The translations under genes and the position numbers were made by a program. Below are positions 1-61,173 of a stretch of DNA of 61,173 bases, in pieces. The stretch spans positions 1 through 61,173 of the forward strand of contig JACRGB010000046.1 of assembly GCA_016212505.1 (NCBI GenBank), written 5' to 3'. A model generated the notes under the pieces. The model saw nothing but the letters and a program-made list of their open reading frames with translations. It did not search any database and was not told the DNA's origin. How positions within the stretch are numbered: the first letter of the stretch is position 1; each line of letters opens with the position of its first letter. The DNA is from Candidatus Micrarchaeota archaeon (GTDB lineage Archaea; Micrarchaeota; Micrarchaeia; Anstonellales; Bilamarchaeaceae).

Positions 1-295
1 AAAAGTTGGATCGTATATGTTGTGATGTCAGGATCAATTAGTTGATCCTGAGCATGCTCGTGATCTTTGCGAAGATCACGACATCGACGCTTCGATCACG
101 ACAGTCAAGAAACGCCATGCGTTTCTTGCCATCCTCGATCAGCTTATTGTTGATCGAGAATAATGGCTGCGCGCTGCGGCAATTGCGTTCCGAAACGCAA
201 TTGGTCGCCTTCGAAGGCGACCGGCTGCCCCGGGGCAGTCGCCGCATATTGGCGGCGCAGCCCGACGTGCCGCTGCTTGAAGCAATTCTACAGAG
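1..295. repeat. Tandem hairpin/palindrome array, family B copy 1 (probably continues past the window start)
   Basis: Stem-loops: TCAGGATCAA-ttag-TTGATCCTGA (28-51), CGTGATCTT-tgcg-AAGATCACG (59-80), CAAGAAACGC-cat-GCGTTTCTTG (106-128), CAATTGCGTT-ccga-AACGCAATTG (180-203). Perfect palindromes at 203-222 and 225-238. Positions 83-132 match the reverse complement of 7400-7450 except in one loop. Confidence 0.9.
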
Positions 296-296
296 C

Positions 297-1475
297 TCAC
301 TTTTCCACCTTGCCGCGTTTTCTAAGCAAATCCACATATAAGCGCACGGTCATATCTGCACTTTTTTCTATAGAATATTTTTCTGAGCTTCTTTGGCCCT
401 CCTTGCCCATTTTCGAGCGTAAATCATCATCCTCGAGCAGTTTTTCCATTGCTTTTGCAAATCTAGGGATATCGCCCGGACGGATCAGCAAACCTGTTTT
501 TCCATGTTCAATTACTTCTATAGGACCAAGCTTGCGGGCGGCAATTACCGGAATCCGGCAGTGCATTGCCTCAACAAAGGTAAGCCCGAAAGTCTCGCTA
601 TCCGATGCCGAAACGAAGACATCTGCAGAGCGATATGCCGCTCCAAGTTCAGATGATGGGACAAATCCAGTAAATACAATATTTTTTATCCCCAAGGCAT
701 GGGCAAGTTTCCTGAATTCTGAAACGTAAGGCCCGCCGCCAACTATAAGAAGAATGCGGTCAGGTGCTTCGACCAGGCTAAAAGCGTGTATGAGCTGGTC
801 GATCCGTTTCTCAAAACTTATCCTGCCCACATAAACAATGGTTTTCTTATTTTTGGGATTATACTTGCGCCTAAAAGCGCGGATTTGGTCGGCAGTGCAG
901 TCAAATTTGGAAAACTCGATCCCATTAAGCAGTAGAAGCGCGTTTTTGAGCCCGTAAGAGTTAAGTTCATCCACAAGCTTTTGTGTAGGCGCGGTGACGA
1001 TATCTGCCATTGTAAATGCGTGTTTTATGAGTTTTTTTACGGTGTAGTTGCTCAGTTCCTTAAGGAATGAAGGCAATTTGCGGTTCAAGAGGTGCGGAAC
1101 ATAATCCGGAAAATGGGTGTGGTAGGTTATTATGCAGGGCAGATTATGCTGCTTCGCCGCTATGACCCCCTGAAGGGCAAGAAGTACCGGTGCATGCGAA
1201 TGGACCAGATCAGGATTCTCTTTTTTTAGCAGGTCAGAGACTTTTTTGTAATTTATCGAAGAAATCCGATAACCACTATAGAATGGGAATGGTATCGAAT
1301 GGATCCAGTATATTTTGAAATTTTCCGAAAGCTGCTCCACCTTAAATGAGCCGCCACTTGGGGCAAAAAGTACGATCTGATGGTCCTTGGACAGTAATTT
1401 TATCAGGTCAACAAGGTAGGACACCACGCCATTTGTCTGTGGCAGGTAGGTATCAGTAAAGAAGGCGATTTTCAT
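297..1475 (-). CDS. Glycosyltransferase family 4 (GT-B)
   Basis: MKIAFFTDTYLPQTNGV N-terminus, HSHAP, YVGRISFEKRID, and the ETFGLTFVEAM GT4 signature. Start moved to ATG 1475 because the ORF-track extension runs into a hairpin array. Confidence 0.93.
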   Translation of the reverse strand: MKIAFFTDTYLPQTNGVVSYLVDLIKLLSKDHQIVLFAPSGGSFKVEQLSENFKIYWIHSIPFPFYSGYRISSINYKKVSDLLKKENPDLVHSHAPVLLALQGVIAAKQHNLPCIITYHTHFPDYVPHLLNRKLPSFLKELSNYTVKKLIKHAFTMADIVTAPTQKLVDELNSYGLKNALLLLNGIEFSKFDCTADQIRAFRRKYNPKNKKTIVYVGRISFEKRIDQLIHAFSLVEAPDRILLIVGGGPYVSEFRKLAHALGIKNIVFTGFVPSSELGAAYRSADVFVSASDSETFGLTFVEAMHCRIPVIAARKLGPIEVIEHGKTGLLIRPGDIPRFAKAMEKLLEDDDLRSKMGKEGQRSSEKYSIEKSADMTVRLYVDLLRKRGKVEK

Positions 1476-1488
1476 TTTTTCACCCAGA

Positions 1489-1740
1489 AAAAATGGAAAA
1501 ACTTGAACTTGTTCAAGCTGATTTTCATTTTCGACACCTCGAGGACAAAGTTTCACAAACTTTGTCCGCATTGGAATTATACAAATTCCAATACAAGGAC
1601 AAATTTCGCAAAATTTGTACGGTGGAAAAATTTAACGAATTTTTCCATAAGCGAACAAAGTTCGCTACTATTTGGAAATTCTCATAGAATTTACAAGACA
1701 AAAATGGAAAGATTTGAATGTAATTCAAATAGATTTTCAT
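1489..1740. repeat. Tandem hairpin array, family A copy 1, bounded by ~40-nt imperfect direct repeats
   Basis: Hairpins GGACAAAGTTT-cac-AAACTTTGTCC (1543-1567), ATTGGAATT-ataca-AATTCCAAT, ACAAATTT-cgca-AAATTTGT, GGAAAAATT-taacg-AATTTTTCC, GCGAAC-aaa-GTTCGC. Flanks AAAATGGAAA..TTGAA..TTCAA..GATTTTCAT at 1489-1528 and 1700-1740. Confidence 0.88.
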
Positions 1741-7376: not shown

Positions 7377-7381
7377 ATGAA

Positions 7382-7693
7382 TGTGACCGAAGAGACCCCA
7401 TGGCAAGAAACGCGCTAGCGTTTCTTGACTGTCGTGATCGAAGCGTCGATCACAACACTGCAAGCACTCGCCATTTGATGGCTTGTTCATGGCCGAAGTG
7501 TCGGCCATGGCACACACGCGAAATGCAGGGCATTTCGCTCGTGCGGTCGCTTCGCGACGTGGGGTACTTTGAGAACGACGATTCGTTCTCAAACCCTCAG
7601 GAACATTGGTAATGTTCCTGAAGTCCCTCATTCGGTCACAACTTTCCAAATTGGATCGCCGCAAGCGGCGGGGTATTCGACCCAATTTGGAAA
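7382..7693. repeat. Tandem hairpin array, family B copy 2, MITE-like with 10-bp terminal inverted repeats
   Basis: TGTGACCGAA (7382-7391) / TTCGGTCACA (7631-7640) enclose hairpins at 7404-7427, 7434-7453, 7488-7509, 7518-7538, 7568-7593 and 7597-7621. A further 12-bp stem follows (7643-7654/7682-7693). Confidence 0.9.
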
Positions 7694-7796
7694 TAAAATA
7701 ATACCTCATTTTTAAAATCTTCTTCAGAATATTAATTATCGAATTTTGAGTAAAATCAGAACTCTAGACTGTGAACCGGGAACAGAAAACATTACT

Positions 7797-7937
7797 GCTG
7801 GGGTCGCCTAGCCCGGTATGGCGGCAGGTTGCTAGTGCCTTTTAGTAAAAGGCACCCCAAAACGGGGTTGCTATTGCTAAGGCATGTGGAAACCTGTTGC
7901 GCGTGAGCGTTCGGGAGTTCAAATCTCCCCCCTAGCG
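7797..7937 (+). tRNA. trnS: tRNA-Ser(GCT) with 57-nt intron at 37/38 (7835-7891)
   Basis: Acceptor GCTGGGG/CCCTAGC, anticodon stem GCAGG/CCTGT, anticodon GCT at 7831-7833, long variable arm GCGC-GTGA-GCGT, T-arm GGGAG-TTCAAAT-CTCCC, discriminator G, no encoded CCA. Confidence 0.93.
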
Positions 7938-48547: not shown

Positions 48548-49162
48548 ATGAAAACAATCATAGGGTTAATGTTTTTACTTATAATAAGTGCCAGCTTTGC
48601 GCAAATAATTGAAACGCAGCCTGGAGATAATGGAAAGCAGTTTGCATCAGATACTTCAGCTGCAAAATGCAAGGACACAAATGCAAAAGCAGTCTATGTT
48701 TGTTATGGTAATGTCGTAAAGGTAGTTTGGAAAGACTCAGCGCAGGGAAGTACGTTCTATAAGCCAGATGGCCAGGTAGTAAACTGCCCCCCTGGAACAC
48801 CCGCGCAGATGGGAGCACAATGCCTTCAGATGATGACGCCTAATTATTGCCCGGGCAGTTCGCAGTGTGGAAGTTCGCCACCAGAAACATTCCCGGGGTT
48901 AAATCCAGTACCTTCTGATAATACCAGCAAAAATGTAACTCCCACTACCCCGGCACCTGAACCTACTCCGGTAGTTAAGCCAACTCCTAATCCCGAGCCA
49001 ACTCCGGCAAAAAACAACACAATTGTTGATAACAGCGGATCGCCATCATATCCGGCGAACGTTGATAATAATTTCAACAATCTCATACTGGTCCTGATAG
49101 TCATTGCGATTGTTGCAATTATTGTGCTCTTTACAATGTTTAGGAGCAGCTTGCATACCTAA
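48548..49162 (+). CDS. Cell-surface protein: Cys-rich domain, Pro/Thr linker, C-terminal TM anchor
   Basis: Signal peptide MKTIIGLMFLLIISASFA, 6 Cys, TPTTPAPEPTPVVKPTPNPEPTP, C-terminal hydrophobic helix. Confidence 0.82.
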   Translation: MKTIIGLMFLLIISASFAQIIETQPGDNGKQFASDTSAAKCKDTNAKAVYVCYGNVVKVVWKDSAQGSTFYKPDGQVVNCPPGTPAQMGAQCLQMMTPNYCPGSSQCGSSPPETFPGLNPVPSDNTSKNVTPTTPAPEPTPVVKPTPNPEPTPAKNNTIVDNSGSPSYPANVDNNFNNLILVLIVIAIVAIIVLFTMFRSSLHT

Positions 49163-60959: not shown

Positions 60960-61173
60960 TGAAACCCGCTAAAATAAAAAAGTAGCACCATCTATTTCTT
61001 ATCAAGGACTCGTGGTCTAATTACCTCAGACGCCGCGGTAGCTGTTGAAAAAGTCAATGAACTCTCTGATCTAATATTAAAAAAATAAGCTGAAGCTTAG
61101 GAAGCCACTGGCTTCCAGCTTAATTTTACAAATCTCTTCAGATTTACCACCATTGATATAAGTGAAACCTGAA

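Follow-up and report, generated by a model that had tools for sequence, protein, structure and literature searches.

Very small mobile elements have been described in Haloquadratum walsbyi, whose palindrome-associated transposable elements (PATEs) are 52 bp long and terminal-only, carry two near-terminal palindromes, lack both terminal inverted repeats (TIRs) and target-site duplications (TSDs), and are apparently still mobile (PMC3119063). In the same species, SMR-A repeats insert into the palindromes of other elements, and mobile elements generally tend to target other mobile elements (PMC3119063). IS200/IS605 elements were found in more than 65% of Micrarchaeota genomes in a 2026 survey (PMC13343696). 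[quoted passage not shown] Here we focused on a hairpin-rich stretch at the start of a 61,173-nt contig (JACRGB010000046.1, hereafter the window) from the metagenome-assembled genome (MAG) of a Candidatus Micrarchaeota archaeon (46 contigs, 1.48 Mb, 41% GC). Window positions 1–296 make up most of a composite MITE of 352 bp. This DNA transposon is non-autonomous and runs from position 48683 of another contig, C4 (C4:48683), to window 296, a reading to which we give a probability of roughly 0.85. TIRs and TSDs, the eight copies with their differing flanks, read depth, and a site that is empty in relatives support it well. The hairpin-rich stretch, hitherto unexplained, is a defined MITE of unusual build, for which the ends, the target duplication, the history of insertion, and the relations among copies can be given; it is selfish DNA and not a gene.

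The stretch sits on the first bases of its contig (C36), and window 1–113 is identical to the terminal 113 bases of C4 (C4:48738–48850; BLAST against the genome). Leftward extension, proposed with the original prediction from the window's sequence, supplied the remaining 55 bp of the element from C4. The true start is 55 bp left of window position 1, and the window holds the right five-sixths; the left TIR and the 5' arm of the first hairpin of a nested module, U1, lie at C4:48683–48737. Each TIR spans about 30 nt and is made of a 12-nt outer box (GGCTCTGTAGAA), an unpaired bubble of 10–11 nt, and a 9-nt inner box (CAGCGGCAC). The order is GGCTCTGTAGAA, bubble, CAGCGGCAC at the left end and GTGCCGCTG, bubble, TTCTACAGAGCC at the right end. 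The right TIR (267–296) is the inverted complement of C4:48683–48714, the bubble excepted. In each of the seven copies with fully assembled ends, both ends show complementary outer and inner boxes; for the eighth, contig C33 breaks off 9 nt into the left TIR. The bubble reads ACCCTCTATAG or TTGCTTCAAG, and the two ends differ in all of these seven copies, so the TIR stem is always bubbled.

The TSD (TCACTTTTC) is perfect at 9 of 9 positions for the copy shared by C4 and the window, as it is for the C8 copy (GATAAATCT). The match is 8 of 9 for a copy split between C33 and C37 and 7 of 8 for the copies on C29, C42 and C30, and it is weaker or degraded for those on C24 and C3. In the window, the TSD includes the stop codon of a GT4-family glycosyltransferase gene (TGA on the minus strand, 297–299), and the stretch does lie directly downstream of that stop, as had been noted. 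The elements are 174–352 bp in size and have no coding capacity. The TSD of 8–9 bp and the GGCT.TGT.GAA terminus recall IS5-family/IS903-type elements, which is a lead only.

To determine copy number, as also proposed with the original prediction, the genome was searched by BLAST, which returned eight copies with 88–98% identity and differing flanks; the part at window 165–296 recurs on C3, C8, C24, C29, C30, and C42. The basic element is 173–177 bp long, compared with 352 bp for the window copy. A scan of the whole genome for the outer box detected no GGCTCTGTAGAA ends beyond the eight elements. The 174-bp consensus had no BLAST match in 24 same-genus and 16 same-order genomes, and an exact pattern scan of JGI metagenomes gave only one chance match, inside coding DNA. 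The absence of the family from these 40 relatives and the metagenomes indicates that it is young and lineage-specific.

A repeat at the very end of a contig, whose positions 1–113 duplicate the end of C4, could also be chimeric or collapsed, that is, an artefact of assembly. The only public run with the sequence is a groundwater metagenome DNA run, and depths were taken from Logan contigs, an independent assembly of that run. The unique flanks had depths of ~15–17, window 1–112 had 28.4, which fits two copies, and the core had 120–200. These depths, matching 2 and ~8 copies, exclude an artefact of this kind. The perfect TSD and conserved synteny that link C4 to the window, and a second copy with its own flanks on C33 and C37, speak against it as well, and we gave it almost no weight.

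The conserved synteny concerns the GT4 gene and a DUF460-like gene, which begins on C4 28 nt past the left end of the MITE. In nine same-genus genomes, the GT4 orthologue (52–59% identity) is directly followed by the DUF460-like orthologue, with a gap of 0–20 nt, and once the MITE and one TSD copy are taken out here, the GT4 stop and the TTG start are 18 nt apart. This adjacency shows that C4 joins the window and that the site is empty in the relatives. From the TIR/TSD structure and the empty sites, the element arrived by transposition: a staggered cut duplicated the 9 bp exactly at the GT4 stop codon, and the insertion parted GT4 from the DUF460-like gene. The second composite copy has its left flank at the 3' end of C33 (..CCCAAATAGG followed by GGCTCTGTA; C33:19510–19518) and its right flank on C37 (CAAAATAGG). 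C37 opens (1–297) with a 96%-identical copy of window 1–296 and diverges completely afterwards. The MITE copies thus make the contig joins C4–C36 and C33–C37 possible; such repeats break MAG assemblies.

At least nine stems were found in window 1–296, in agreement with the eight or more tandem stems or palindromes of the original prediction, and the GC content (53%, versus ~42% for the contig) is elevated as described there. Perfect 10-bp stems were detected by an inverted-repeat scan at 28–51, 58–81, 106–128, and 180–203, alongside perfect palindromes at 203–222 and 222–241, an imperfect 11-nt stem at 131–161, and further short stems. Folded as single-stranded DNA, the stretch reached -86.8 kcal/mol, compared with -49.0 ± 3.6 for shuffled sequences (z -10.5), and the minimum free energy of the minus strand folded as RNA had a z of -8.2; in both cases none of 200 shuffles was as good. 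The description as an intergenic stretch of back-to-back hairpins was right in that the DNA is non-coding, repeated and hairpin-rich. It belongs, however, to a TIR/TSD transposon that is truncated here by the contig's edge, and does not form a free-standing array.

Three open reading frames (ORFs) cross the stretch, at 42–341 on the plus strand and at 38–337 and 139–300 on the minus strand. None matched Pfam, two indels between the C36 and C37 copies (96% identical) shift the frame mid-ORF, and the shorter copies lack most of these ORFs. We rejected a protein-coding reading on these grounds; no conserved protein emerged for 42–341 or 38–337, and the three ORFs are by-products, as had been supposed, because GC-rich palindromes lack stop codons on either strand. 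Hairpin repeats therefore yield spurious ORFs on both strands.

The cores of the eight copies align with 87% mean column identity. A long-range stem, GGCTGCGC (165–172) with GCGCAGCC (255–262), closes a five-way junction that includes hairpins at 180–203, 203–222, and 223–240 and a short inner helix (~176–180 with 241–245). The consensus fold is a rod, in which the outer and inner boxes of the TIRs are followed by a 12-bp stem (GGGCTGCGCGCT/GGCGGCGCAGCCC) and then by the multi-hairpin junction; in the 174-bp basic element, the inner stem between TIR stem and junction is 9–12 bp. Standard pairs occupy 97.8% of the cells of the consensus structure, with six pairs changed on both sides. There were 15 double-change cells, compared with 5.5 ± 1.7 in column shuffles (none of 500 reached this value), and pairing fell to 29–53% once the partners were slid. 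Some stems were swapped whole between copies yet stayed perfect, GGTCGCCTTCGAAGGCGACC being replaced by GGTTGCTTCTCGAGAAGCAACC, and CTGCCCCGGGGCAG by CTGGCCCGGGCCAG or CTCACACGAGTGAG. A requirement for a folded single strand, intrastrand template switching, or both would keep the stems perfect. Among the G-U-type half-changes, neither strand was clearly favoured, and RNA hairpins therefore cannot be told from DNA hairpins with these data.

The copies are also mosaics. In the C8 copy, U1 is as in the window copy, hairpin 3 is the variant seen in C29/C42, hairpin 4 is that of C30, and the ends are arranged as in C30/C24. Relative to the asymmetric ends, the interior is oriented one way in four copies and the opposite way in three (e.g., C8:11554–11792 versus C42:16643–16817). 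Both the mosaic copies and the interior flips suggest that inversion or recombination took place inside the inverted boxes. If the modules are mobile elements of the class proposed below, the flip/flop of the interior against the TIR bubble would reflect a hairpin intermediate.

The compensatory stem changes would also be expected if the stretch were a functional structured RNA under selection for RNA hairpins, such as a stabiliser in the GT4 3' untranslated region, a processing site, a terminator, or a small RNA gene. Such a role would suit its location directly past the GT4 stop, the T7 run that the GT4-coding strand has in the U1 loop, and a copy of one of its modules (DH-1, below) apparently kept with compensatory changes at seemingly the same locus in two relatives, G014 and G023. 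Arrival by transposition, as the TIR/TSD structure and empty sites show, speaks against it, as do the half-changes without clear strand bias and the absence of any Rfam family match (Rfam 15 at gathering score gave no match in the whole window). The MITE family is absent from all relatives and therefore has no conserved function.

The genome-wide distribution of hairpins bears on the same question. Perfect hairpins with a stem of 8 bp or more and a loop of 3–9 nt numbered 616 in the genome and 130 in a block-shuffled control. More than half were in arrays, 38 of which had at least three hairpins, and 57% were in the non-coding 12% of the genome, based on crude ORF-based gene calls. With the same crude calls, the arrays were spread over tandem (31), divergent (14), and convergent (14) spacers about as the lengths of these spacers would predict. 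A dedicated 3'-end function does not agree with this spread, and a 3'-end or terminator bias of the arrays was rejected. With these points taken together, we consider a functional RNA improbable and retained the composite MITE.

The difference in length between the window copy and the basic element is due to nested modules, which we defined as inserts present or absent between pairs of copies (Table 1). The MITE inserts measured 63, 113–114 (= 56 + 58), 91, and 53 nt, the last two being the other inserts carried by the C24 copy. Counted together with three inserts of the 7380–7694 element (57, 60, and 57 nt; below), there are eight modules, and seven of them are double hairpins; the exception, the 91-nt insert of C24, has one hairpin and a stem around a 35-nt loop. 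The 63-nt U1 is carried by the C8, window, and C37 copies, between CATCAACAAG and GGCTGCGC, and is made of a hairpin (CGATCCAAC-A7-GTTGGATCG), the linker TATAT, and a second hairpin (CCTCGATCAAC..GTTGATCGAGG). In the C8 copy, U1 is uninterrupted and its two hairpins are contiguous, whereas the window and C37 copies have an extra 113–114 nt within the U1 linker, namely U2 (19–26 plus 85–132) and U3 (27–84). U3 consists of TCAGGATCAA-ttag-TTGATCCTGA, the linker GCATGC, and TCGTGATCTT-tgcg-AAGATCACGA, with a boundary that is ambiguous by 2 nt (AT), and is nested inside the second hairpin of U2.

Table 1 Features of the MITE and of related elements in the window (window coordinates unless a contig is given).
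Feature	Position	Strand	Details
U1 first hairpin	1–18		1–4 end of A7 loop; 5–13 3' arm GTTGGATCG; 14–18 linker TATAT
U2 3' tail GTTGTGAT	19–26	-	DH-1 unit; parted from the rest of U2 by U3
U3, 58-nt double hairpin	27–84		Perfect 10-bp stems; from comparison with the intact DH-1 at 7401–7457
U2 main part (DH-1)	85–132	-	TGG; hairpin 1 CAAGAAACGC/GCGTTTCTTG; linker ACTGTC; hairpin 2 GTGATCGA.. truncated by U3
U1 second hairpin	133–164		CCTCGATCA-gcttattgt-TGATCGAG plus tail AATAAT
MITE core	165–266		In 8 of 8 copies; 97.8% of cells paired, 6 pairs with compensatory changes
Right TIR	267–296		GTGCCGCTG, bubble CTTGAAGCAA, TTCTACAGAGC
TSD TCACTTTTC	297–305		Second copy at C4:48674–48682; from flank comparison
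GT4-family glycosyltransferase gene	297–1571	-	Pfam Glycos_transf_1 4e-46, Glyco_transf_4 2e-27; 3' end is the insertion site
Different hairpin element	7380–7694	+	No TIR or TSD; minimal 146-nt form at C24:4089–4234
U1-type double hairpin	41178–41240	+	In a tRNA-Arg(UCU)-like gene, within intron 1

U2 belongs to a family of double hairpins (DH-1), and its reverse complement is found at window 7401–7457 as the unit TGGCAAGAAACGC-loop-GCGTTTCTTGACTGTCGTGATCGAAGCGTCGATCACAACA. With 27–84 removed, the reverse complement of 19–26 plus 85–132 equals that unit except for the loop, and a covariance model (R1) scored 49.4 bits (E 2e-12) on 85–132. The nesting order of U1, U2, and U3 follows from these copies. 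U1 (63 nt) was taken up first, then U2 (56–57 nt, into the U1 linker), then U3 (58 nt, into a U2 stem), and the enlarged element subsequently transposed as a whole to give the second copy at C33/C37. It was still able to transpose, because the C36 and C37 copies share the three modules but differ in flanks and TSDs. U1-type units are present at no fewer than six places, including C29:108305, a site 30 nt from the C3 MITE, and a tRNA-Arg intron.

The unit at 7401–7457 is part of a different element, built on a long internal stem (GTGACCGAAGAG../..CTCATTCGGTCAC) and a second composite hairpin. Compared with its 146-nt minimal form, the window version has three added double-hairpin inserts of 57, 60, and 57 nt, the first of which is this DH-1 unit. 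The original prediction had identified window 83–132 as the reverse complement of 7400–7450 save one loop, which holds (94% identity by BLAST), and had placed the stretch in one family with 7378–7700, which does not: the two elements differ in their ends and share only one 57-nt module, in opposite orientation. The 50-nt block is one module common to two unrelated carriers, the MITE and the 7380–7694 element. Nested modules of this kind are a dated series of insertion events, and the genus-wide DH-1 predates the MITE around it, which is species-specific.

A total of ~17 units with the order TGG, hairpin, ACTGTC, hairpin were found in the genome by a regular-expression census, either solitary in intergenic DNA or nested in each other or in other repeats. 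A DH-1 covariance model of the first hairpin and linkers (13 sequences, 10 pairs) gave 26 full-length matches in the same genome and matches in 14 of 24 same-genus genomes (1–19 copies each), and it matched none of 16 genomes from other families of the order. Fifteen DH-1 units from eleven species have the same TGG-hp1-ACTGTC-hp2-..CA architecture (hp, hairpin), with stems that differ while staying complementary and loops of 2–7 nt. As in PATE-type elements, there are two hairpins and no TIR, and at the three insertions that could be resolved against an uninterrupted paralogue, the units follow ..CA or ..A, end in ..CA, and have no target duplication. A small ORF starting from the conserved ATGGCA of DH-1 was rejected, since loop lengths of 3–7 nt shift the frame between copies.

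Several individual DH-1 copies in related genomes were also inspected. Those at loci L135 (G014:C54) and L142 (G023:C9) have near-identical left flanks (AAAAAGGAGATT.AAAAAG), which suggests that this copy has been kept at an orthologous site while its stems underwent compensatory changes. Two further units, in G021 (L130, G021:C24) and G010 (L138, G010:C14), contain the same 35-nt hairpin (TCGCGTTCGA..TCGAACGCGA GCATGTTCA) at the same point of the second DH-1 stem, and its linker GAGCATG recurs in U3 (window 49–55). In G017, a unit lies just past the rpS7 stop codon (L129:440–570, G017:C1:63940–64070), where it and 32 nt of other sequence are placed between 21-nt direct repeats of the gene's 3' end (ATGGCGCGCAGTTC[C/A]AGGTA), an unusually long repeat given how small the insert is. 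DH-1 was rejected as the end of a TnpA element in G017, as this unit is 3' of rpS7 and other DNA lies between it and the TnpA gene.

The modules need not be mobile by themselves. Hairpins could arise or be exchanged in place, by snap-back or template-switch synthesis that makes quasi-palindromes perfect and by recombination or gene conversion among arrays, and the MITE would only carry them. The mosaic copies such as that on C8 fit this explanation, as do the interior inverted against the asymmetric TIR bubble in three of seven copies, the loops that vary in nearly every copy next to stems that remain perfect, the lack of a common target motif, and a 31-nt hairpin in C30/C44 whose 3' arm complements the pre-existing flank ACTGT. 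It does not predict that the ends and linkers of DH-1 (TGG, ACTGTC, ..CA) are constant in at least 14 species, with unrelated flanks and as solitary intergenic copies, and the inserts are discrete and of similar sizes (53–63 nt). In general, we regard genesis in place as unlikely, and take up below the reading that the modules are small transposons.

Modules were also seen in tRNA-like genes. At C2:32575–32860, a tRNA-Pro(UGG)-like gene has a D-loop intron with three hairpin modules, one of which scores 35 bits with the DH-1 model, and a second intron in the T-loop; the DH-1-like hairpin is at C2:32676–32708. In a tRNA-Arg(UCU)-like gene at window 41142–41440, D-loop, anticodon loop, and T-loop each apparently contain an intron. 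The sequence directly 3' of the 7380–7694 element (GGGGTCGCCTAGCCCGGTATGGCGGCAGGTTGCTA.., window 7782–7900) resembles the 5' part of another intron-containing tRNA gene. ARAGORN reported no tRNAs in the 61-kb window, and a permissive Rfam scan for a known RNA at 41000–41600 returned only chance miRNA-type matches.

The U1- and DH-1-type modules within the tRNA-Arg (41178–41240) and tRNA-Pro (C2:32676–32708) introns raise a further explanation, in which the modules are mobile at the RNA level, akin to archaeal bulge-helix-bulge introns, and spread by reverse splicing and reverse transcription. The modules are embedded in longer introns and not coextensive with them, and they occur in both orientations and in contexts that do not look transcribed. 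Unit ends, inspected by eye in a few units, lacked the two-bulge geometry of two 3-nt bulges on either side of a 4-bp helix, and one 31-nt hairpin had a single 3-nt bulge. No sign of a reverse transcriptase turned up, though none was sought. Such spread is highly improbable.

To reveal what might move these elements, we searched for transposases and for repeat ends. The MITE would be moved by a DDE transposase supplied in trans. The assembly encodes no DDE_Tnp_1 (PF01609), Y1_Tnp (PF01797), or TnpB, and an autonomous MITE partner was sought without success by a TIR scan of the genome, BLAST in the 40 relatives, the metagenome pattern scan, and PF01609 in the genome. The lack of Y1 TnpA and TnpB is uninformative, because the IS (insertion sequence) bodies are unassembled in the MAG: most of its 46 contigs break off in one of five repeat ends, and no bodies of these repeats are included. 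The commonest repeat end (IS-A) has at least 17 identical (100%) copies with subterminal hairpins and without TIR (e.g., C2:1–139, C14:1–140). The IS-A ends terminate in ..GGGGAGGATGTCAT and ..GCGCAACCCGATTTA, and their subterminal hairpins are of the form CCCCACC../..GGTGGGG. By these ends, the repeat resembles elements of the IS200/IS605 type. In the relative G042, DNA 100 nt from a Y1 transposase gene matches the first 25 nt of the IS-A end, Y1 transposases (PF01797) are encoded in 7 of 31 same-genus genomes (G042, G024, and G007 have such genes), and a Y1 enzyme is probably present in the source organism. At its 3' end (61040–61173), the window breaks off in a further repeat, with TGTTGAAAAAGT common to both ends of that repeat.

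The double-hairpin modules may be tiny mobile DNA of the PATE or IS200/IS605 terminal-only kind, which would insert as single strands without TSD and prefer hairpin DNA. We consider the chances about even that they are small PATE-like single-strand transposons. It is a tentative and rather doubtful proposal that the ~55-nt units (DH-1, U1, and others) form an undescribed class of ultra-small mobile elements of Micrarchaeota that home into hairpin DNA. If so, each unit would be two hairpins with variable stems between the short, conserved single-stranded motifs TGG, ACTGTC, and ..CA, moved in folded form by an enzyme that reads structure. Their homing targets would be MITEs, each other, and tRNA introns, and intergenic regions and MITE interiors would be built by accretion.

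Several observations weigh against the interpretation of the stretch as a composite MITE with mobile modules. Older copies have imperfect TSDs, and at the C3 copy no TSD is recognisable. No transposase with matching ends was found in the assembly, which is a weak objection since high-copy IS bodies are missing from the MAG. No target motif is common to the sites into which U1, U3, and the other inserts went, the module stems are so diverse that recognition by a single Y1 transposase is hard to envisage, and the module hairpins do not resemble those of the IS-A end (CCCCACCC-TAAA-GGGTGGGG). In addition, the covariation could reflect RNA function.

Other genes of the window include those for aIF2-gamma, FttA/aCPSF1, and a thermosome subunit, and its P-type ATPase has its best relatives in Candidatus Micrarchaeota and Bilamarchaeum MAGs (up to 79% identity), which places the host among the DPANN archaea. 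More broadly, a 1.5-Mb DPANN genome, of a kind usually deemed streamlined, holds several layers of active selfish DNA, and DH-1 offers a compact conserved substrate for finding the enzyme that moves such elements.

Among described elements, archaeal and bacterial MITEs, such as the SM elements of Sulfolobus and the MITEs of Haloquadratum, share with the element described here the short length, the lack of coding capacity, the multiple copies, the TIRs, and the fold-back structure, as well as a target duplication of 8–9 bp that is AT-rich and empty sites in relatives. Unlike them, this element had no autonomous partner with matching ends that could be found, its TIRs have an obligatory 10–11-nt mismatch bubble with one of each type per copy, and its interior grows by the uptake of nested double hairpins in either orientation relative to the ends. 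The bacterial REP (repetitive extragenic palindrome), BIME (bacterial interspersed mosaic element), and REPIN (REP doublet forming hairpins) repeats, which are mobilised by RAYTs (REP-associated tyrosine transposases), are similar in that they form intergenic mosaics from short, imperfect palindromes, occur in many copies, and are variably combined at each locus. In contrast to these, the modules have neither a conserved GTAG-type head nor a head motif common to them, the assembly yielded no RAYT/Y1 gene, the units are two different tandem hairpins instead of inverted REP doublets, and the host is an archaeon. The small dispersed repeats of heterocyst-forming cyanobacteria and the GC clusters of yeast mitochondria are very small palindromic units inserted into one another or into other repeats; these are single short palindromes, and their sequences and hosts are unrelated to those here. 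PATEs and SMR-A repeats are the closest published parallel for the modules, as the double hairpins of 53–63 nt are likewise nested and without TSD. They differ from PATEs in that their hairpins are unlike those of the genome's IS200/IS605-like element, their stems are diverse with only short linkers conserved, the assembly encodes no Y1 transposase, and the host is a DPANN archaeon.

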